Shown here one piece after another: positions 3,468-45,948 of a stretch of DNA of 64,000 nucleotides. Each line of letters starts with the position of its first letter. Positions within the stretch are counted from its first letter, which is position 1. The translations under genes and the position numbers were made by a program. A model generated the notes under the pieces. The model made no database searches. It saw only the letters and a program-made list of their open reading frames with translations, and was not told the DNA's origin. This DNA is from an uncultured Campylobacter sp. (GTDB lineage Bacteria > Campylobacterota > Campylobacteria > Campylobacterales > Campylobacteraceae), in contig NZ_CAJPQR010000003.1 of the NCBI RefSeq assembly GCF_905372745.1, positions 16,748-80,747 of the forward strand, in the 5' to 3' direction.

Positions 3468-4080
3468 CCCAAGCATAAAGCCTATAAGACAAATATCTAA
3501 GGTAAATTTACGTTAAAGTCCGCATAAATTTATACGGATTTCTCGCAAATCAAATTTAGCCGCCTTTGTCGCGGACTAGATGATTTCTCGCATTTTTGGT
3601 TTAAATTTACCCCAAACGTTTGCGCTATCCATCCGTGCGGCGCAAAAACGGGCGGGTGTTTGAAAACCGCAGGGTTGATGATCAGGCATGCCCCGCTAGC
3701 TCAAGAGGCGGCGGGTAGGTTTTGCCATCCGGACTAGTCGGCGGATTTGACGGTTTTGACGGATTTATCTTAGTTTGCCGCGATCAAACCGCTCATCCCG
3801 ACGGCAAACATCGGCGGCATAAATTTGCGCCCGAGCTAGCCGCCAGCTACGCTTTTGGCTAGAGGCTAAATTTATAAGCCGCACAAGAAATTACGTCGCA
3901 GCATCTTGCGCATTTTTGCCTGCCTTGTTTGAGCGACGTAAATTTACGATCTACCGCTTAGAAACTGGCGCGATTTAGCGCAAAACGCTCCGTGCGGGGC
4001 GGCTTTGTTTGCTCGCATTCTTGCCGTAGATACAAAATCATCCTGAAACTCTTCGTCTCGAGGCAAGTATTTAGCGCGGT

Positions 4081-4515: not shown

Positions 4516-4561
4516 TTTTTCTCCTTTTAATTTTTATTTTAGAGGCTTGTCTTTTTGCCCT

Positions 4562-4920
4562 ATACTTCGCTTTGCTTCCCTTGCGGTCGCAACTGCAAGC
4601 AGAAGGAAATTTTGCCGAAGCTCGGTTACGTATTATTTATACGCGCCCTCGATCGGCTCATTTCCGCCTCGTCTCCTCGTAGCGAAGTTTAGCTTCACTG
4701 CGTTTGCTACTGCAAGCAGAACGTTACGAGCGCTTGCGCGAAGTAAAAAGAAAAAATACTTCGCCTTATCGTTTTGCGCTCAAATTTGAAGTTAAATTTG
4801 CAAATTTGAGCCACCGAGACCCGCACCTTGAAAATGCTAAAATTTAGATTCAAAATTTTTAAAACGCAACAATCAAAAAGCTTTTTGCTTCGCTACGCTT
4901 GCAACTGTTAGCAGATCGCC
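4562..4920. repeat. Three irregularly spaced copies of a ~35-40-nt word (cttcgct..gctt..gcaactgcaagcaga) inside an ORF-free spacer
   Basis: The cores are gcaactgcaagcaga at 4589-4603, gctactgcaagcaga at 4706-4720 and gcaactgttagcaga at 4901-4915. Each is preceded by a ttcgct/ttcact..gc(t)tt segment. A related cttcgcttcgctcgttacg..ggcaacaagttgcc word occurs at 45690-45730. Confidence 0.6.
4756..4846 (+). repeat. Dispersed ~90-nt intergenic repeat, copy A
   Basis: Copy A reads atacttcgccttatcgttttgcgctcaaatttgaagttaaatttgcaaatttgagccaccgagacccgcaccttgaaaatgctaaaattt. It aligns at about 85% by eye with 45543-45636. Its 3' part recurs inverted at 45875-45905. Confidence 0.75.
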
Positions 4921-5067
4921 TCTAAACGATAGCGAAGCCGAAATTCGGTAGGTAACTACTTTGAGCGTTTGGATTTTAAAAATTTGGGCTCAGGGTTCTA
5001 TTTTAGGCAGTAGATTAAAAGCTAAATTTGAAGCAATTTTAAAAATTTCAACAAATTTAACCGACCC

Positions 5068-7286: not shown

Positions 7287-7313
7287 TATCTTTCCTTTTT
7301 TTAAAATTTCTAC

Positions 7314-7431
7314 GGCCTTATCTCTTGAGTATATTTAAAAGGGCTAGCAAAAATAAATGCTCACGGACGACCAGTCCGCTCCGCTTTATTTTTGCGTCGC
7401 AACTTTTAAATCTATCTCAAGATATAAAGCC
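7314..7431. other. 118-nt three-tier imperfect hairpin in the glmM/rpsT divergent region
   Basis: The outer arms are ggccttatctcttgagtatatttaaaag (7314-7341) and cttttaaatctatctcaagatataaagcc (7403-7431), about 24/28 paired. The middle stem is a perfect 11 bp: gcaaaaataaa (7347-7357) with tttatttttgc (7385-7395). The apical stem is cggac-gacca-gtccg (7364-7378). Confidence 0.6.
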
Positions 7432-7651
7432 TTATCAACTTTTTGGGTGGCAAACACTGCGTCTTTAAATTTATGGTAAGATAAAATTTGCCCGCCAAAT
7501 TCCATAAATTCATTAAATTTTCGACCTATTCTATCAAAAAATATCCAAATTTAAGTTGTAAATTTACTCGCTTTAAATTTTACTTAAATTAAGCGGATTT
7601 TAAAACTGGTTTTTATATAATCACGGACTAAAATTATGAAAAAGGGACATT

Positions 7652-8998: not shown

Positions 8999-10088
8999 GC
9001 TGCTATAAATTTTGCGTAATTTTAATTTTTACTCTACGAGCGGTTGTATTCTAGGGTATTTTTATTAAATTCGTATTTTGATTTTTACTTTGCGCCACTG
9101 CCGTTAAATTTTATAAAATCGTAAACCGATTTTGACAAATAAATTGCGATATTTTAGACGGTCGTGGCGTTTGTTTTGCGGATTGATTTAGTATAAAGAG
9201 GTCGCACCGGTTTTTGTTTGCTAAATCCGAAAATATTTTCTTACTCTTTTAGACAAATTTAAACCCAGCGTAAATTTACATTGTTGCATTAAGATTTTTA
9301 GGCCTGGCAGCCCAAATCAAAACGTCTTAAAAAGCGCCGAGATAAAAGCAAATTTATAAAGTTATTTAGCTACGAAGCCATACTTTTGGCGTAACTTTGT
9401 TTAAAACTCTGCGCTCACGCATAATAGCCGCAGACTTTGCTCTTATGCGTCGTTAATTTCTAACAGACTTTGCAAGCTTGTAGCTTACGTCGGCGCCGAG
9501 TTTAAATTTAACATCGCCTGTCGCATTTATCGCTTGCGATTAGTTAGATTAGCTTCCGATTTACGCGTAGCTTCTTGCGCCAGGACCGTCTCGTCCGACC
9601 TTATCGCCCAGGCGCTAAATTTTGCCGACAGACACGGGGCGCAGATGTTTGAAAACTTCCATCTCTACGCTTATGCGAAAAGTTACGTCGCTTTACTGGC
9701 GACGGTCGCAGAGCAAATTCGGCACTTGCACGGATATGTTTTTGCAAAGATTTAGGTTGAGGCATTTTATCTTTTAAGTCGTTTTAGAACTGTTTAAATT
9801 TAATGTGATTTTGCTTCCTTGCGCCTACGTTAATTTAGCTTTGCGGACAAACGAGCGCTTTGTATTTGCCTGTTTAAGTGGCATTTGCTGAACTGCTTAC
9901 AAAATCGGCCCGAGGCCTTGCAGGCTTTGGTGCATAAAGCGCGCATTTGTAGCTCGGTAGTAACTTCTGAAGCACTTACGCTAGCTCAAAGCTTTGCGAC
10001 GTGGCGCTGGCTTGCAGGGGTAAAGCGCCGACCTTTTTAGCCTTGCAAAATTGGCAACGCAGTCGCCTTTGCTACGGCAAAACGCGGG

Positions 10089-10670
10089 CTAAATTTTACC
10101 GGTTAAAATTTGCACGATAGTTTCGGGCAAAATTTCATGCTCTATCTCGTGGATTTTGGCCTCGTAAGCTTCAAAGCTCATTCCCGCGCTCTTTTCAAAC
10201 GCACGCTGAGCGATGATCTTGCCGCCGTCTAGCTCCTCGCTGACCCAGTGCACGCTCACGCCGCCCACCTTCATATCGCTATCAAAGCTCTCTTTTATGG
10301 CACGCGCGCCCTTAAAAAGTGGCAGCAGCGATGGGTGCAAATTTATCGCGCGAATCTGCCTCGTAAAAACGGGCGTAAGGATGCGCATAAAGCCCGCAAG
10401 AACCGTTAGATCGACGTTGGCACGCTTTATCTGTGCTACGACCGCGGCGTCAAACTCTTCTCTAGAGGCAAAATTAACGTGCTCGGTAACGACGCTTTGC
10501 AAGCCGTATTTTGCGGCTTTTGCTATGCCGCCTGCGTTAGCTTTATTTGTTAACGTTAGCGCGACCTCGATCTTGGTTTCGCCAAAAACTTTGCCGTGCA
10601 GATTCTGCAAAATCGCATCCAAATTTGAGCCGCCGCCACTAAATAAAACCGCTATTTTTTTCGTAAGCAT
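10089..10670 (-). CDS. purN: Phosphoribosylglycinamide formyltransferase
   Basis: 193 aa. Motifs VLFSGGGSNL, NLHPSLLP and SVHWVSEELDGG. Confidence 0.9.
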   Translation of the reverse strand: MLTKKIAVLFSGGGSNLDAILQNLHGKVFGETKIEVALTLTNKANAGGIAKAAKYGLQSVVTEHVNFASREEFDAAVVAQIKRANVDLTVLAGFMRILTPVFTRQIRAINLHPSLLPLFKGARAIKESFDSDMKVGGVSVHWVSEELDGGKIIAQRAFEKSAGMSFEAYEAKIHEIEHEILPETIVQILTGKI

Positions 10671-12073
10671 TTGAGTCCTTTGATGACGTCCGCGGCCGTG
10701 AGCGCGTAGTCGTTGATTTTGATTTCGCGGGCGGCTAGAGCGTGAGCTAACGCGCCCGAGATCGCGGCATTTAGCGGATCGTAACCTTGCGCCAGTAGTC
10801 CCGCGACGATACCGCTTAGCGCGTCTCCGCTACCGCCTTTTGCGAGTGCGGCGCTACCTTGCGTCATGACGTAGACCTCGCCGCCTTGCGCGATTAGCGT
10901 ATTTGCGCCCTTTAACACAAGCACGCATTTAAAATTTCGGCTAAAAATTTGAGCGAGATTGAAGCGATTTTTTTGCACTTCGCGGACGTCAAATTTGCCA
11001 AGATTCGCAAGCTCCAGCAAGCTCGCAAACTCCTTTGGATGCGGCGTTATTACGACGTTTTTATTATTTAAAAGCTCAAGCGTGCGCGGCTCATAGCAAA
11101 GATCGGCGTCGATAACGAGCGCGTCTTTTTTTTTTAGTTCGCTAAAAAGCTCGTCTTTTTGCACCTCGTCAAGCTCGCCAAGTCCCATACCGACGGCTCC
11201 GACTCGCATTTTGGGCGTTATGCGCGCGCTTTGCATTAAAACGGGCTCAATGTTTAAATTTTTGCCCACGACGCTAACGAGTCCCGCACCGATAGTTAGC
11301 GCGGCAAGTCCCGCTATACGCGCCGCTCCGCCCTTTTCGCCGCTAACAACAAACACGTGCCCAAAGTCGCCCTTGTTAACGTTTTGCTTAGCGCGAAACG
11401 GCAAATTTAAATCGCTTTTTCCAAGTTTATAAAAGCTCGTCCCCGTCTCGTACAGCTCGCGAGAAAGGCCCAAATTTGCGACCTTTACGCGCCCCACGAA
11501 ATCTTTTGCAAAGTCGTTATAAAGCGCTAGCTTTAACGCACCCATCGTCACAGTCGTATCGGCCTTAAAGACCGTGCCTTGCGGCACGCCGTTTTTATCA
11601 AGACCGCTCGGGATATCGCAGGCGAGTTTGTAGGCGGGTTTTGCATTTAGTAGATTTATCAAATTTATCATCCGCTCGTCTAGCTCACGGCTAAGTCCGG
11701 TTCCGAAAATCCCATCGATGATGCAGTCAAATTCGTCGCTTTGCGTCAAATTTGAGATCAAATTTACGCCGCATTTTAGCGCTCTGGTTAGCTCGGTTTT
11801 TGAGATTTCATTTTGTTTGTCGCTCGCTAAAAACGCAAAACAATCAAATTTATCGCCCAAAAGCCGAAGTGCGGCAAGTACGTCTGCGCCGTTATTTCCG
11901 CTGCCGACTACGCCTAAAATTTTACGGCGTTTGGTCGATGATTTTTTGAGCCTAGTCCGTACTGCGCGAGCTAACGCATTCGCGGCGTTTTGCATCAAAA
12001 CTTCGGTGCTAAGCCCAAACTCGCTCACGGCTCTAGCGTCAAGCTCCGCCGTATCCCAAAATAGCTTTTTCAT
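10652..12073 (-). CDS. nnr: Bifunctional NAD(P)H-hydrate repair enzyme (YjeF_N epimerase + ADP-dependent dehydratase)
   Basis: 473 aa with a two-domain architecture. The N-terminal domain has GSGNNGADVL. The C-terminal carbohydrate-kinase-like domain has KGGSGDALSGIVAGLLAQG. Confidence 0.85.
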   Translation of the reverse strand: MKKLFWDTAELDARAVSEFGLSTEVLMQNAANALARAVRTRLKKSSTKRRKILGVVGSGNNGADVLAALRLLGDKFDCFAFLASDKQNEISKTELTRALKCGVNLISNLTQSDEFDCIIDGIFGTGLSRELDERMINLINLLNAKPAYKLACDIPSGLDKNGVPQGTVFKADTTVTMGALKLALYNDFAKDFVGRVKVANLGLSRELYETGTSFYKLGKSDLNLPFRAKQNVNKGDFGHVFVVSGEKGGAARIAGLAALTIGAGLVSVVGKNLNIEPVLMQSARITPKMRVGAVGMGLGELDEVQKDELFSELKKKDALVIDADLCYEPRTLELLNNKNVVITPHPKEFASLLELANLGKFDVREVQKNRFNLAQIFSRNFKCVLVLKGANTLIAQGGEVYVMTQGSAALAKGGSGDALSGIVAGLLAQGYDPLNAAISGALAHALAAREIKINDYALTAADVIKGLKCLRKK

Positions 12074-15761: not shown

Positions 15762-17086
15762 TACTCCGCCTTTTTCTCTTTTTTATCGTTTTTCTCGCTC
15801 TTTAGCGCGAACATCTCGTTAAATAGCTTCTCCTCGATCATCGACATTTTGATCGCAGGTAAAATTCCTTGATTTTTATAGTTTTCAAGGTGTTGTTTCG
15901 GATCTACGCCCGAGCGATACGCCTCAAAATACACCGCTTGGATCAGCTCTTGGTCGCTTACTTTTATGCCTCTGCGGCGCGCTAGCTCGTCTATTATAAA
16001 CGTTAGTTTCACGCTTTTTACCGCGTCGTCGCGGTAGGTCTCGCGCTGTTTGGTTAGAGCGTCTTTATCCTCTCTAAATTTAGCCATCTGCTCAGGTGTA
16101 AAGCTGCTCCAAGCACCGCGGAACTGCATATCCATCTCTTGCTCTACGATGTTTTTTGGCACGTTGAAGTTAAATTTAGCCACGATCGCGTCGGCAAATT
16201 TAGGCTTTAGCTCTTCGTTTACGTTTTTGGCGTGCTTGTCGGCTTTGATCTGCTCTTTTAGTCTCTCTTCAAATAGCTCGACGCTTACCTTTTCCTCGCC
16301 CGGCATGATGCGTTTTAGCGTCTCTTCGTCGATCTCTTCAGGCACTTTTTTGCCTTGGATTTCGTGTAGCTTTACTTTAAACGTCGCGTCTTTGCCCGCA
16401 AGGTGCGCAGCGCCGTACTCGGCCGGAAATTTAACCTTCACGTCGCGCTCCTGCCCTACTTTTAGCCCGATCATGCCGTCCTCAAAGCCCGGTATAAACT
16501 GACCCGAGCCGATTTCTAGCAGGTAGTTTTCAGCTTTGCCGCCCTCAAACGCAGCGCCGTCTACGAAGCCCTCGAAGTCAAATTTGGCAAAATCTCCCTT
16601 TTCAAGCGCGGCTTTTTCCACTTTTTCTAGCGGAGCGATCATTTTTAAAATTTCGTTTTTTCTCTCATCGATCTCTTTTTTCGTTACGCGCGGCGCGCTG
16701 ACGCTCTCTATCAGCTCCTCGTAGCCGTCGATGTTTATGACGGGTTTAAACGAGATTTCGATCTCTGCGTCGATCTCGCTCTCGCCCCTGTCGAATTTCG
16801 TCACGATCGGCTCGCCGATAACCTCTTCAAATTTTCTATTTAGCTCTTTTAGACCTGCGTCGATCGCGTCTTTTAGCGCGTCTTGCTCGGCATCGGCGGT
16901 TAGTTCTTTTTCGTAACGTTTTAGTACTACGTTCACAGGTACTTTGCCCGCTCTAAATCCATCTATTTTCATATTTTTCGCAGCTTTTTTAGCAGCGTTT
17001 TCGAGTTTGGATTTTACGTCCGCGCTCGGTATTTTCGCACTTAGCGAAGCATTTACGGCGTCGATCGCCTTGGTTTTGATTTGCAT
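15761..17086 (-). CDS. tig: Trigger factor
   Basis: 441 aa. Ribosome-binding GFRAGKVP motif and a central FKBP-type PPIase segment ([11 protein letters not shown]). Confidence 0.93.
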
Positions 17087-19157: not shown

Positions 19158-20258
19158 ATGAAAAAATTTTTAGCGATGCTGCTTCTAGGCTTGCTCGGCC
19201 TTGAAGCTAAGATAATCGGTCAGGGCGAGCTAGCGGACTACGGGTTGGTTTTTGCGGACGGCAATGCCGTGGATAAAGACGGCAACATAAAAGCCGTAGG
19301 TAAAAATTTTATGGTCACGGGAACCTTTTCCGACGGTCTTTGCGTGGTTTTTATAGGCGAACAGACCTTTTTTATGGATGAAAACGGCAGACTTGCCGTG
19401 CGTTTGGCGCCCGGCACGGGCTTTAAAACCAGCTTTACCGAGGGGCTAGCAGCCATCGTCAAAAACGGTAAATTCGGCTTCATAGACAAAACGGGCAGGG
19501 TCGTGGTAGAACCCAAATTTGACTATACGGGTATAGCTTTTAGAGACGGCGCGATGATTGTAGGCAGGATGAAATACGGCTACGTGGATAAAAACGGCAA
19601 AACTATCATTTCTCCGCGCTACGACGAGGCAAGGTCTTTTTCTGACGGGCTAGCCTCGGTGCGTATCGCTGATAAATGGAGCGTGATAGACAAAAGCGGC
19701 GCTACCGTTTCAAAGCTAAATTTGGGCCGCCCGATAACTTTTACGGAAGGCTTGGCGCCCGTAAAATTTAACGGACTCTACGGCTTTGTGAACAAGGGTG
19801 CAAACATCGTTATAGAGCCTAAATTTGAATTAGCGTCGCTCTTTAGCGAAGGGCTGGCGGCCGTAAAATCGGGCGGCAAATGGGGTTTCATAGACAAAAG
19901 CGGAAAGTTCGCGATAGAGCCGCGTTTTGACGAAGAAAATCACTTTAAAGAAGACCGCGCCGTAGCGAGGGTCGGCGGGCTGTGGGGCGTTATAGATAAA
20001 AGCGGTAAATTTATCCTTGAGCCGCAAAAATTCGACTATATATTTGACGAGTTTTATGGCGGAATGTTAAATTTCAGCGTAAATAGAAAAAGCGGTTGCC
20101 TAGACGTAGACGGCAAGGTCGTCATAGAACCGAAATTTGACGACATATACGTTTTTGAGGGCGACGCGACGGCCGCTAGCGTGGACTACAAACGCTTGTT
20201 TATCGACAAAAAGGGCCGAATTTTGCCCATTTCTTACTACTTTGAGATAGAAGATTGA
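19158..20258 (+). CDS. Secreted WG-repeat (KWG-type beta-propeller repeat) protein
   Basis: Signal peptide MKKFLAMLLLGLLGLEA. At least 8 repeats of the GL..V...GK(W/F)G(F/V)IDK.G..VIEPKFD type. Confidence 0.75.
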   Translation: MKKFLAMLLLGLLGLEAKIIGQGELADYGLVFADGNAVDKDGNIKAVGKNFMVTGTFSDGLCVVFIGEQTFFMDENGRLAVRLAPGTGFKTSFTEGLAAIVKNGKFGFIDKTGRVVVEPKFDYTGIAFRDGAMIVGRMKYGYVDKNGKTIISPRYDEARSFSDGLASVRIADKWSVIDKSGATVSKLNLGRPITFTEGLAPVKFNGLYGFVNKGANIVIEPKFELASLFSEGLAAVKSGGKWGFIDKSGKFAIEPRFDEENHFKEDRAVARVGGLWGVIDKSGKFILEPQKFDYIFDEFYGGMLNFSVNRKSGCLDVDGKVVIEPKFDDIYVFEGDATAASVDYKRLFIDKKGRILPISYYFEIED

Positions 20259-24054: not shown

Positions 24055-25242
<1,188 letters not shown>

Positions 25243-25337
25243 CGGCTTGTCTTTTGAGCGCTTTTTGCGGAGCTTGCTAAAATTTAGCTCGGCGGACTAC
25301 TTGTCCAGCCTACGCTAAATTTTACCTGCGCAACCCC

Positions 25338-25430
25338 AAAAATCATCTCAAAATACTTTGCCTTAACAATTTAAATTTCATAAATTTGGTTCAAATTTGG
25401 GTTTTTAAAAGCCCAAATTTGAGTTAAATT
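25338..25430 (+). repeat. Diverged copy (C) of the dispersed intergenic repeat, in the nifS-nifU spacer
   Basis: aaaaatcatctcaaaatactttgccttaacaa... aligns at about 80% over the first ~31 nt with 45528-45558 (aaaaatcatctcgcgatacttcgccttatcg). A run of AAATTT words follows. Confidence 0.5.
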
Positions 25431-25579
25431 TAAAAGGAAGCGGGCGGCAGTATCGCGAGATGGATTTGAATGTTGTGAAGCAAAAATGAGCAAGGCTAAC
25501 CAAATAGGTTGCCGCAGCGATATTTTTGCAAACTCATTCAAAGACGCTCGCGAGACAACGCCTCTAAAAAGGAAATAAA

Positions 25580-26572: not shown

Positions 26573-26725
26573 TTTGCTTTAGACGGCAAATTTGACGCGG
26601 CTTGGGCTCAAATTTGCGCTAAATTCGGGCGGTTAAATTTAGCCGTCCGAGAAGCTAGTCGCAAATTAAGCTAGCTATTATAAAAGATAGATTGTTTTTT
26701 GGGGTGAGAATCTAGCCGCAAGTAT

Positions 26726-26751
26726 TAATTTCGGGAATTATCCCGAAATTA
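26726..26751. terminator. Perfect 11-bp hairpin between the convergent nifU gene and the 72-aa ORF
   Basis: taatttcggga-atta-tcccgaaatta. It overlaps the stop codon of the minus-strand ORF. Confidence 0.5.
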
Positions 26752-26967
26752 AGCTCTTTTATTTTCTAGGCGGTTTAAAACGGGCTTTAAAAACTCGTCA
26801 AATTCGTCCTGCGTTAGCACTCTTTTGCCTAGTTTTTCCTTGCACTCTTTGCCAAGCTCGCACAAAACCTCTCGGTTTGCTATACTTTGAGCCTTGCCAT
26901 GTCTTGCTAGTACGGTGTTTAGCTCGTGTTCTTCGGAAAAGTTAACCAACTCTCGATCTGTTGCCAT
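26749..26967 (-). CDS. Small hypothetical protein (72 aa)
   Basis: Good RBS (caaaggagctaaaATG). Charged helical composition. I recognise no motif. Confidence 0.5.
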   Translation of the reverse strand: MATDRELVNFSEEHELNTVLARHGKAQSIANREVLCELGKECKEKLGKRVLTQDEFDEFLKPVLNRLENKRA

Positions 26968-27243
26968 TTTAGCTCCTTTGTTAAGAATTTTTGCAGATTA
27001 TACAATTTTTAGCTTTAAAATTTAGCTAAATTTAGCGCCGAATTTGGATACTGAATTTGCCTTGCGGTAGCGATTTTGCCGCAGATTTTAGTCTAAATTT
27101 ACTTGCAAATGCTCAAATTTCTTGCTAAGCAAACAACGGCCGTTACGGGTAGCGTTGGGATTAGCGGCAGATGCGAGTAAAAAGCATCGTAGCAATAAGC
27201 GCGCTTAAAAGCAATTGCCTAAAACTCGCAAATAAAAGTCTAA

Positions 27244-27417
27244 TCAAGCGACCAAGTCGGCTTTTTTTAAAATTTTAGAGATTTGCGCTAAGGCTTTGCT
27301 GTATTCCAGCGCTTCGGCCTCCTTGTCGCTTTAAGCTAGCTTATCTTGGCGGCTTGTATCGTCAATTTTAGGCTCAAATTTAGCTGCTTTGGCGATTTTA
27401 TCTTTTTGCGTTTGCAT
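27244..27417 (-). pseudogene. 57-codon reading frame with a strong SD, interrupted by one in-frame TAA
   Basis: GGAGGcaaaaATG sits at 27417. The frame reads MQTQKDKIAKAAKFEPKIDDTSRQDKLA*SDKEAEALEYSKALAQISKILKKADLVA*. The internal stop is at 27331-27333. Confidence 0.3.
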
Positions 27418-27659
27418 TTTTGCCTCCTTTTCAAATTTAACCCAAAAAACGTTTGTCCCGAATTTCAATTTGCGAAATTAAATTTTTCTACTTCATTTAT
27501 CAAAATACCTAAAATTCCGATAATCGTTTAATGTATGCGTTTTTAGTAATAAAGTTAGATTTTTACATATTCGGTTTTTAAGTTTTATAAAAGTATAAGT
27601 TGTTAATATTCGCTCAGATTTTAATACGAAATCAAATTTAATCACAAAGGAAAAACATA

Positions 27660-44672: not shown

Positions 44673-45424
44673 GCGACGTTTCGGTGCGAAATTTGAGCTT
44701 TGGTTACGATGAAAACCTCGTGTTTGAGGGCATAAATTTAGAATACGATTGCAAGGATTTTCTAGCCGTCATAGGCCCCAACGGCGGCGGCAAAAGCACG
44801 CTTTTAAAGCTGATGCTGGGTCTAAACAAGCCAAGCGGCGGGACGATTGAGGTGTTTGGTCAGGAGCCCGCTAGCGTGAGCAAGGCCGTGGGCTACGTCC
44901 CGCAAAATATCCCGATAAATCAAAGCTTCCCGATGCGCGTGCTCGAGGTCGTTTTAATGGGGCGGATAGATAAAAAGCTGTTTGGATTTTACGGCAAGGA
45001 CGATAAGATAGAGGCCGAGGCGGCGCTCGAGCGCGTCGGGATGGGCGAATTTACGCGACGAAAGATCGGCGAGCTAAGCGGAGGACAGCGCCAACGCGTC
45101 TATATCGCGCGCGCGCTTTGCGCGAAGGCTAAAATTTTGATGTTAGACGAACCCACCGCCAGTATCGACACGAAGGGCCAAGCGGACGTTTATAAGCTGC
45201 TAAAACAGATCAATGCTGAAGGCACTGGCGTCGTGCTTATCAGCCACGACGTAAATTTGACGCTAAATTTCGCCACCAAGGTCGCCTACGTCAATCACGA
45301 TCTTTTCATGCACGAGATCTCGAACAGCTCAAAGCAGGATTTTATCGAGCATTTGGCGAGAGATCATAGGCATTTTTGCGATGTGGAGGTGGCGCTTAAG
45401 GAATGCGGCTGCGGACATCGTTAG
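44669..45424 (+). CDS. znuC: Zinc ABC transporter ATP-binding protein
   Basis: Walker A GPNGGGKST. Signature LSGGQRQRVYIARAL. Walker B LMLDEPTASID. C-terminal His/Cys tail. Confidence 0.9.
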   Translation: MSDVSVRNLSFGYDENLVFEGINLEYDCKDFLAVIGPNGGGKSTLLKLMLGLNKPSGGTIEVFGQEPASVSKAVGYVPQNIPINQSFPMRVLEVVLMGRIDKKLFGFYGKDDKIEAEAALERVGMGEFTRRKIGELSGGQRQRVYIARALCAKAKILMLDEPTASIDTKGQADVYKLLKQINAEGTGVVLISHDVNLTLNFATKVAYVNHDLFMHEISNSSKQDFIEHLARDHRHFCDVEVALKECGCGHR

Positions 45425-45526
45425 GGGGATTTGCGGCTCGTCTCGCGAGTGCTTTTCCGAGATTTCGCAAAATTTTCGCTCCGCAGGCTATATGCCTAGC
45501 GCACGCTCAATTTTGCTTCAAAGCTC

Positions 45527-45636
45527 GAAAAATCATCTCGCGATACTTCGCCTTATCGTTTTACGTTCAAATTTGAAGTCAAATTTTCAAATCTGAGTTG
45601 CCAAGACATGCACCTTGAAAATGTAAATTCAAATTT
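45527..45636 (+). repeat. Dispersed intergenic repeat, copy B (znuC-znuB spacer)
   Basis: gaaaaatcatctcgcgatacttcgccttatcgttttacgttcaaatttgaagtcaaattttcaaatctgagttgccaagacatgcaccttgaaaatgtaaattcaaattt matches copy A (4756-4846). Its 5' part matches copy C (25338-). Confidence 0.75.
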
Positions 45637-45734
45637 GCGACGCTTTGCGTCAGCAAAGCTATGTCGCCACCCTTAACTTCGCTTCGCTCGTTACGAGGCG
45701 GCAACAAGTTGCCTCTACGAAGAAAAGCGTCGTA

Positions 45735-45794
45735 GGGGGAGGGGGATTAAAGGGGGTGGGGAGCGACTTCGCCATTCAAGCCCCCACCCCCTTT
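45735..45794. other. G-quadruplex-type tract plus a perfect 13-bp G/C-run hairpin
   Basis: GGGGGaGGGGGattaaaGGGGGtGGGG lies at 45735-45761. aaagggggtgggg (45749-45761) pairs with ccccacccccttt (45782-45794). Confidence 0.7.
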
Positions 45795-45802
45795 ACAACA
45801 AA

Positions 45803-45834
45803 GTAAAAAACAACCTCAAACGGTTGTTTTTTAC
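45803..45834. terminator. Perfect 13-bp bidirectional terminator-like hairpin inside the znu cluster
   Basis: gtaaaaaacaacc-tcaaac-ggttgttttttac. The A-run and T-run make it terminator-like on both strands. Confidence 0.6.
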
Positions 45835-45874
45835 TCAGAGAAGTTTAGCTTGTAAAGCAAAATTTAACCAAACC

Positions 45875-45905
45875 AAATTTAGCATTTTCGCGGTGCGGGT
45901 CTCGG
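45875..45905 (-). repeat. Inverted partial copy of the repeat's 3' module
   Basis: The reverse complement ccgagacccgcaccgcgaaaatgctaaattt matches 4814-4846 (ccgagacccgcaccttgaaaatgctaaaattt). Confidence 0.7.
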
Positions 45906-45948
45906 CGAGTAACGCCAAAAATGCCGAAAAAAGTAAAAAAGGAAACAA

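Follow-up and report, generated by a model that had tools for sequence, protein, structure and literature searches.

The 64,000-nt stretch of DNA analysed here (contig NZ_CAJPQR010000003.1 from an uncultured Campylobacter sp. of oral type, positions 16,748 to 80,747; hereafter the window) contains 21 long spacers, and four of these carry members of one family of palindromic repeats. The spacers are those between hemJ and a TM2 gene (A), znuC and znuB (B), nifS and nifU (C), and glmM and rpsT (D), and the genes next to them are housekeeping genes, encoding HemJ-family, TM2/SHOCT, LspA, GlmM, S20, RF1, NifS and NifU proteins, a ZnuC-like ATPase and a ZnuB-like permease. The central unit of the family, which we term H1, is a near-perfect hairpin of about 120 nt, and its four copies in the window fold alike (z -3.7 to -8.3). 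The comparison of these copies with those of other Campylobacter genomes reveals a dispersed, structure-conserving family that has come to occupy operon junctions and in which turnover within species continues.

With a covariance model of H1, four and no more full copies are detected across the window, scoring 92-158 bits, along with two stubs in the hemJ spacer, while the opposite strands score only 21-25 bits, so that H1 has a polarity. Copy B (45435-45552; here and below, features lie on the + strand unless stated otherwise) is found 11 nt past the znuC stop codon (model match 45426-45572, 157.7 bits, E = 1e-36). In the nifS-nifU spacer, copy C-left (25244-25362) begins 1-2 nt past the nifS stop codon (150.9 bits over 25235-25382; fold z -4.5), and copy C-right (25443-25562, - strand) is inverted, with its 5' end abutting the nifU ribosome-binding site (131.5 bits over 25422-25570; fold z -4.4). 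The core between the two (25373-25440, no strand assigned) is rich in AAATTT, which occurs at 25373, 25382, 25393, 25415 and 25426. A preliminary description of the window, made from its letters alone, had placed a diverged repeat copy between nifS and nifU; the homology is real, but the limits given were wrong, and the copy belongs to a longer module 5' of the one that had been noted. By blastn, 25242-25398 matches 45433-45586 (69% over 158 nt, E = 3e-17), and a second, inverted copy occupies 25415-25567 (E = 2e-16), so that the entire spacer, which matches its own inverse at 65% over 330 nt (E = 4e-25), is a palindrome of about 320 nt. The fourth locus, the glmM-rpsT spacer, had been overlooked. 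Here, copy D (7314-7431; model match 7306-7453, 91.8 bits, E = 2.5e-20) lies 29 nt upstream of the start of glmM, which is encoded on the other strand, and its RNA fold reaches -47.1 kcal/mol (z -8.3).

The pairing of H1 is kept even where its sequence has diverged. Among 67 aligned copies, all from Campylobacter genomes, pairwise identity has a median of 69% and a minimum of 48%, and 97.1% of the stem cells are paired, compared with 78% after shuffling and 32-53% when partners were slid. The covariation score of 0.537, as against 0.194, was equalled in none of 500 shuffles. The preliminary description had proposed a covariance model as a way of looking for compensatory changes, and such double changes are indeed present in 21 of 29 pairs; at one of them, 27 copies have AU, 24 have CG and 13 have GC. 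The consensus ends are GGCTTGTCTCGCGAG...CTCGCGATACTTCGCC, the internal loops and a C/T mismatch are retained across copies, and a U-rich tail, TTATCGTTTT, comes after the hairpin when it is in forward orientation. Watson-Crick pairs make up 1861 of the 1943 pair cells, against 18 cells with G-U and 29 with A-C, so that a G-U excess is seen on neither strand. This lack of a wobble signature is more in keeping with a palindrome at the DNA level, or with a requirement that acts on the two strands alike, than with a strand-specific RNA.

A family of structured RNAs had been offered as an alternative to mobile elements. As the primary nature of the repeats this is disfavoured by the Watson-Crick-only pairing, the occurrence in both orientations and the lack of an Rfam match, while a secondary effect in cis is possible. 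With Rfam 15, the window gives no match at gathering thresholds, and the best permissive hit, in the znuC-znuB spacer, reaches 25 bits where the family threshold is 80; a search for tRNA and tmRNA genes found none. One could also imagine that the copies form an independent, multi-copy family of small RNA genes, as they have a stable fold backed by covariation and as a terminator-like hairpin lies within one form of the element. The pairing and the Rfam result count against this as well, copies are found in either orientation and directly next to coding sequences, and the content of a single locus varies greatly among strains. Nor was a promoter-like site found in the znuC-znuB element; the promoter and terminator scans, themselves uninformative, called nothing in that spacer and two weak promoter matches (9/12) in the hemJ-TM2 spacer. 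We regard such an RNA gene family as highly improbable.

An artefact of chance or composition in AAATTT-rich spacers, or a set of decayed-gene remnants, might be suspected from the 5-fold over-representation of AAATTT, which dominates the generic repeat families, and from open reading frames (ORFs) of 71-80 amino acids that overlap the repeats. A 36-nt degenerate core pattern, however, has 4 matches in the window against 0.00 expected, and most of the similarity, including the conserved blocks of H1, lies outside the AAATTT words; together, these findings exclude chance. The ORFs 4547-4789 and 45381-45596 had been taken to be non-coding, which is supported: the frame in which the shared module is read differs between them, the other copies have stops in every frame, and no Pfam match was obtained. 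A coding function of the repeats was rejected on the same grounds. As such, the artefact or remnant explanation is refuted by the frame, pattern, consensus, covariance-model and Pfam results, and its probability is practically nil.

Outside the window, a scan of 185,579 species genomes with one degenerate pattern returned at least 119 stretches, and subsequent profile filtering left at least 85 homologous copies in at least about 64 Campylobacter loci. About 70 of these profile matches lie in gene contexts that are not orthologous to the window. The preliminary description had named two findings that would speak against a repeat family, namely that no further copies exist elsewhere or that the similarity is confined to the AAATTT words, and neither is borne out. 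Carriers among the matches listed include C. showae CC57C, C. concisus, Campylobacter sp. MOP7 and a large number of metagenome-assembled genomes (MAGs) of oral type; the roughly 50 pattern matches listed from outside Campylobacter are due to chance, and the profile rejects all of them. Blastn searches of PLSDB and INPHARED gave no match, and none of the 30 pattern matches in IMG/VR passed the covariance model. The window holds 4 copies per 64 kb, and secondary copies occur about once per 20 kb in the loci fetched for comparison (sampled contigs, designated by L numbers, roughly 1 Mb of DNA in all), which extrapolates to the order of 100 copies per genome. H1 appears in four arrangements, namely (i) alone, (ii) followed by an AAATTT linker and an arm of about 45 nt, (iii) within a composite of about 485 nt that has additional hairpins between two inverted arms, and (iv) in tail-to-tail inverted pairs. 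The latter account for 22 of 98 H1 matches, most of the others being solo or joined to an arm.

The composite form is represented by the znuC-znuB spacer, the whole 524 nt of which fold at z -9.3, with H1, the AAATTT linker, the left arm, a small hairpin, a G-run/C-run hairpin, a terminator-like hairpin and the right arm in this order. Ten composite copies from different loci align from about 45428 to about 45912, with a variable middle, and their similarity stops at ...GGTCTCGGCGAGTAA(AATTT). The linker with its AAATTT words (45558-45597) aligns to 4771-4812 in the hemJ spacer and to the linkers of 9 other composite copies. What follows, referred to as module 2, is bounded by a left arm (45590-45640; arm hidden Markov model (HMM) 47.8 bits) that pairs in the whole-spacer fold with the right arm (45862-45912; 59.4 bits), the latter being the right end of the composite. 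Covariation of the arms could not be shown, as the two arms of one copy are often mismatched, e.g. CCTTG facing CCGCG, and they therefore behave as sequence-conserved inverted repeats and not as a covarying stem. The 12-nt arm core CGAGACCCGCAC also occurs, with one mismatch, at 11278-11289 within the gene 10652-12073, which is probably a chance match (a rough estimate gives about 0.3 expected in the window).

Between the arms lies a small conserved hairpin (45638-45666; DNA fold z -3.9), which recurs with 91-97% identity at non-orthologous loci including L027, L093, L096 and L030. It is followed by a G-run/C-run hairpin GGGGGTGGGG...CCCCCACCCCC (45748-45795; DNA fold -16.8 kcal/mol), for which the compensatory variant GGGAAGGG/CCCTTCCC exists in other copies and which is 100% identical over 73 nt to the non-orthologous L093. 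The perfect 14-bp, A/T-flanked hairpin at 45802-45835 (no strand assigned; DNA fold z -6.4) looks like a bidirectional intrinsic terminator and was not called by the consensus terminator scan because its T run lies within the stem. A 48-nt hairpin insert (45676-45723) is specific to this locus, as it is absent from 8 of the 10 composite copies and present only in the orthologues L062, L148 and L149 of the znuC-znuB locus. A relative of the short words discussed below had been placed at 45690-45730, a region that is part of this separate insert and in which the nhmmer word model gives no match at its cut-off of E <= 0.05.

In the hemJ-TM2 spacer, H1 has been gutted, and only its first 11 or so and its last 15 or so nucleotides survive on either side of about 200 nt of nested hairpins (module X). 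The 5' stub AGGCTTGTCTT (4546-4556) lies directly outside the hemJ ribosome-binding site, where the orthologous spacers align, and the covariance model gives a weak match over it (4535-4592); in L120 and L045, an intact H1 begins at the position equivalent to 4546. Comparison of contigs shows that module X (4557-4755) stands in place of the H1 interior in the window, L121, L128 and L130, while L120, L132 and L045 have an intact H1 at the same site. The module contains the K hairpin, a dispersed unit of about 70 nt (4605-4674; DNA fold -11.3 kcal/mol, z -2.0) that is found with 87-93% identity at the non-orthologous loci L032, L033, L043 and L075, as well as two short words, which we call S-words. 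These are 31-34 nt long, have the ends TTYTGCTT...AAGCAGAA and fold weakly on their own (z about -1.2). The preliminary description had counted three such words ending gcaactgcaagcaga in the spacer, all of which the word model recovers (E 1e-6 to 1e-7): copy 1 (4572-4604, E = 1.3e-6), which is missing from the otherwise collinear L121, L128 and L130; copy 2 (4688-4721, E = 1.1e-7), which sits in the loop of a small hairpin and is missing from L128; and copy 3 (4883-4915, E = 2.1e-7), which lies further downstream.

The 3' stub ATACTTCGCCTTATC (4756-4770), which aligns to the H1 3' end in all copies (nhmmer 4755-4801, E = 5e-4), is followed by the linker, a solo arm and filler DNA with the third S-word. 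The linker (4771-4812) consists of phased AAATTT words, is itself a small palindrome (DNA fold z -3.7) and is common to 45558-45597. The solo arm CCGAGACCCGCACCTTGAAAATGCTAAA (4803-4850; arm HMM 45 bits) corresponds to the left inverted repeat of module 2 and is 90% complementary to 45875-45905. The filler, module Y (4851-5030), is locus-specific and was found only at the orthologous L121 and L131, being absent from L120, L123, L127, L132, L133 and L136. The module reported to be shared with the znuC-znuB spacer was thus recovered, with 4756-4850 matching 45543-45635 at 83% over 95 nt (blastn E = 3e-20; 86% over 81 nt without gaps), and so was the inverted recurrence of its 3' third, with 31 nt at 4814-4844 being 90% complementary to 45875-45905 and an extension to 48 nt at 81%.

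Related genomes provide sites in which the repeats are missing. In species with 73-77% identical HemJ, the TM2-hemJ junction measures only about 9-18 nt (in L137, it reads TAA-GGAGAGGAA-ATG), and the H1 model finds no copy in the 6.6-9.4 kb around hemJ of the contigs with short junctions. The nifS-nifU junction is likewise short in L183 (16 nt) and in C. pinnipediorum (L184; 24 nt), neither of which has an H1 in the vicinity, while L181, in which NifU is 85% identical, carries an inverted H1 pair as the window does. Turnover is also evident at much shorter distance, as contigs whose HemJ is 98-100% identical have TM2-hemJ spacers of anything between 262 and 552 nt. These differences are discrete: S-words as well as modules X and Y are present or absent in conspecific contigs, some of which have an S-word inside H1 and others module X in its stead. 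Some contigs have another H1 subfamily at the hemJ site, the H1 copies being 59% identical as compared with 95.6% for hemJ. Similarly, at the znuC site, the H1 of the window and that of L073 are 72.5% identical with a flank at 93%, and the L073 copy is 90.6% identical to copy C-left from the nifS site of the window. Within one genome bin, paralogues at different loci reach 96.7-99.2% identity with differing flanks. The S-words occupy one or the other side of the internal loop in H1, the apical loop of H1 or a place next to the G-run hairpin, which means either that they insert into unpaired DNA or that only such insertions survive.

Two of the comparisons revealed further differences around these junctions. 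In the conspecific metagenome contig OEJV01001110.1 (L134; HemJ 98.6% identical), tblastn finds no TM2 gene upstream of hemJ, and an arm and an S-word are kept, which suggests a larger rearrangement at the hypervariable hemJ spacer. In L181 and L182, from the species with 85% identical NifU, a gene for an ABC-3 (ZnuB-like) permease lies directly upstream of nifS, whereas the two are 20 kb apart in the window, so that gene order around the repeat-bearing junctions differs between relatives.

The position of H1 relative to genes follows a rule. In all 70 copies that could be scored for it, the 5' end lies at a gene boundary, namely 0-21 nt past the stop codon of a co-directional gene in 44 copies and 14-29 nt before the start codon of an opposite-strand gene, just outside the ribosome-binding site, in the other 26, while the 3' end is usually 110-830 nt away from the next gene. 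The simplest reading is that whole units were dropped into very short spacers, so that their outer ends touch genes; targeting or a function is also possible. Between co-directional genes, 27 copies are in forward and 21 in reverse orientation, which argues that a strand-specific terminator role has not been selected. The copies within operons must be transcribed, and they would probably have effects on the mRNA.

Taken together, we consider it likely, with a probability of roughly 0.68, that the repeats constitute a lineage-specific, non-coding and non-autonomous family of palindromic DNA, the modules of which nest and recombine. The family would be a previously undescribed member of the intergenic palindromic repeats of bacteria that resemble miniature inverted-repeat transposable elements (MITEs), specific to the C. 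showae/C. concisus group; a full-text search for MITE, REP (repetitive extragenic palindromic) or other palindromic repeats in Campylobacter returned nothing describing such elements. The original proposal of a MITE/REP-like non-autonomous family is hence supported by the dispersed copies, the empty sites, the presence and absence of modules, the near-identical paralogues and the lack of coding capacity. H1 would be the founding module, into larger forms of which S-words and other small hairpins may insert at the loops. Its propagation, or its tolerance by the host, would depend on the folded hairpin, which would point to an enzyme, supplied in trans, that acts on single-stranded or cruciform DNA, and homologous recombination between copies could swap subfamilies. 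Upon co-transcription with an operon, the duplex of about 55 bp may act on the mRNA as an RNase III target, as a stabiliser of 3' ends or as a partial terminator, the last where the U-rich tail follows the hairpin, i.e. in forward orientation.

Several points weigh against a mobile repeat family. An autonomous or ORF-containing version was not found, and the distance between paired arms does not exceed about 450 nt anywhere in the roughly 1 Mb sampled; nor was a transposase seen in the sampled loci. Target-site duplications could not be seen at three filled/empty S-word comparisons or at 11 inverted H1 pairs. Replacement of one subfamily by another at the same site could be the result of gene conversion and not of transposition. 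Lastly, the constant placement of the H1 5' end may indicate a function or targeting, and the strict retention of pairing could equally reflect a function for the host.

The last two points lead to a different view, according to which the repeats are cis-acting RNA modules of the host (terminators, insulators, RNase III sites or mRNA stabilisers) that are kept by selection on expression, their repetition being secondary. The gene-boundary position in 70 of 70 copies, the 97% pairing kept despite 50-70% identity, the U-rich tail behind the forward hairpin, the transcription of copies inside operons and the sites shared across species, such as those of C. concisus (L017, L051 and L100) and of MAG loci (L023 and L089), would all be accommodated. 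We nevertheless regard it as unlikely, since both orientations occur in co-directional pairs (27 forward, 21 reverse), G-U pairs are enriched on neither strand, relatives lack the insert at the same junctions and strains tolerate an H1 gutted by module X, including in the hemJ spacer of the window. Moreover, very short ancestral spacers would by themselves put any tolerated insert at gene boundaries.

With regard to the enzyme that a palindromic repeat family would need, one could speculate that H1 and its satellites are substrates of an unrecognised oral-Campylobacter enzyme that works on folded single-stranded or cruciform DNA and reads the shape of the hairpin instead of its sequence, with the host perhaps having co-opted the hairpins to uncouple cistrons. 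Candidates would be an HUH/RAYT-like enzyme or a recombinase that inserts modules at operon junctions and into hairpin loops. This would explain the Watson-Crick-only covariation, the S-words in loops, the swaps of H1 subfamilies and the location of the H1 5' end at gene boundaries, and we put it forward tentatively, as a rather unlikely extension. Another proposal is that H1 copies serve a site-specific recombinase as folded single-strand recombination sites, much as attC sites do in integrons. This would explain why structure is conserved without sequence and why one subfamily can take the place of another at a given site. The retained internal loops and C/T mismatch, the copies directly past ORF stops and the different subfamilies at one site in close relatives are in line with it. 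Yet the flanks are core housekeeping genes in conserved order and not cassettes, RYYYAAC/GTTRRRY boxes are not visible at the hairpin ends, an integrase gene turned up neither in the spacers of the window nor in the sampled loci, and inverted pairs and nested modules are foreign to attC, so that we consider this proposal very improbable.

Compared with known systems, the palindromic repeat family combines features of several. ERIC/IRU sequences are imperfect palindromes of about 127 bp in transcribed intergenic regions of Enterobacteriaceae and Vibrio. Like these, H1 is a single long imperfect hairpin of about 120 nt that lies in or beside transcription units in either orientation and can carry extra segments at internal sites. 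The likeness, judged by description, is one of overall form (length and single hairpin), and true copies of H1 are confined to Campylobacter among the matches listed. In contrast to ERIC, which is highly conserved in sequence, H1 has many subfamilies with compensatory changes, and it combines with arms, S-words and other modules. REP elements and their mosaic clusters of several motif types (BIMEs) are likewise short palindromic extragenic units near stop codons, the tail-to-tail H1 pairs resemble the inverted doublets of REPINs, which form a larger hairpin, and REP/REPIN elements share the lack of target duplication and the near-identical recent copies. H1 is, however, 3-5 times longer than a REP, a conserved 5' GTAG-type tetranucleotide is found neither in H1 nor in the S-words, and the latter, though of REP size (31-34 nt), fold weakly. 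A RAYT gene did not turn up in the loci fetched for comparison, for which there was no systematic annotation.

Correia elements of Neisseria (CREE/NEMIS), RUP, BOX and Nezha are also non-coding, multi-copy elements of 100-500 nt with inverted-repeat ends, to which the imperfect module 2 arms of about 45 nt would correspond; they lie next to or within operons, are co-transcribed and would be expected, as in the Campylobacter family, to form RNase III-sensitive hairpins. Unlike in these, neither a TA nor any other target-site duplication is detectable in the Campylobacter family, for which no parent insertion sequence is known, and H1 is a palindrome over its full length instead of a core with short terminal repeats. 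With regard to MITEs in general, the family has a matching size (120-485 nt), is non-coding, has at least 85 copies and possesses terminal inverted repeats (the module 2 arms of about 45 nt and, in H1 pairs, inverted ends of about 150 nt). A target-site duplication is not seen, and the loci compared did not include an empty allele from a close relative for any complete H1 unit. Given the lack of such a duplication and of a related transposase, 'MITE-like' denotes a resemblance and not membership. To attC sites (57-141 nt), H1 is similar in that hairpins directly after ORF stops conserve structure rather than sequence, but the Campylobacter repeats have no R/L boxes, integrase or cassette organisation, and their neighbours are housekeeping genes.

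The genomes of Campylobacter are seen as compact, with few repeats. At a density of about one copy per 15-20 kb, such a family can give rise to spurious ORF calls, which has happened in the window, and can break metagenome assemblies; it also provides markers for strain typing, as with the hemJ spacer of 262-552 nt within one species. The elements within the znuCB, nifSU and TM2-hemJ operons may impose RNA processing or partial termination on genes for zinc uptake, Fe-S clusters and haem synthesis. In addition, the clean Watson-Crick-only covariation across subfamilies makes the family a good system for the evolution of hairpin-dependent mobile DNA.

Some observations on the window stand apart from the repeat family. 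The spacers or stretches at 1789-2627, 3477-4080, 8999-10088 and 26573-27659 contain no ORF of at least 80 amino acids, no Rfam match and no member of the H1 family. AAATTT occurs 452 times in the window, where 91 +/- 10 occurrences are expected from dinucleotide shuffles, in genes and spacers alike, and in spacers it is often phased at about 10-12 nt, e.g. at 4782/4794/4802 and 7547/7560/7575. The word fits RAATTY, the methylation motif linked with DNA uptake in C. jejuni. Finally, 19466-20141, within the ORF 19158-20258, comprises four diverged copies of a 58-nt coding repeat, roughly GKFGFIDKTG..VVEPKFD, which looks like a protein repeat of the WG/KWG type.

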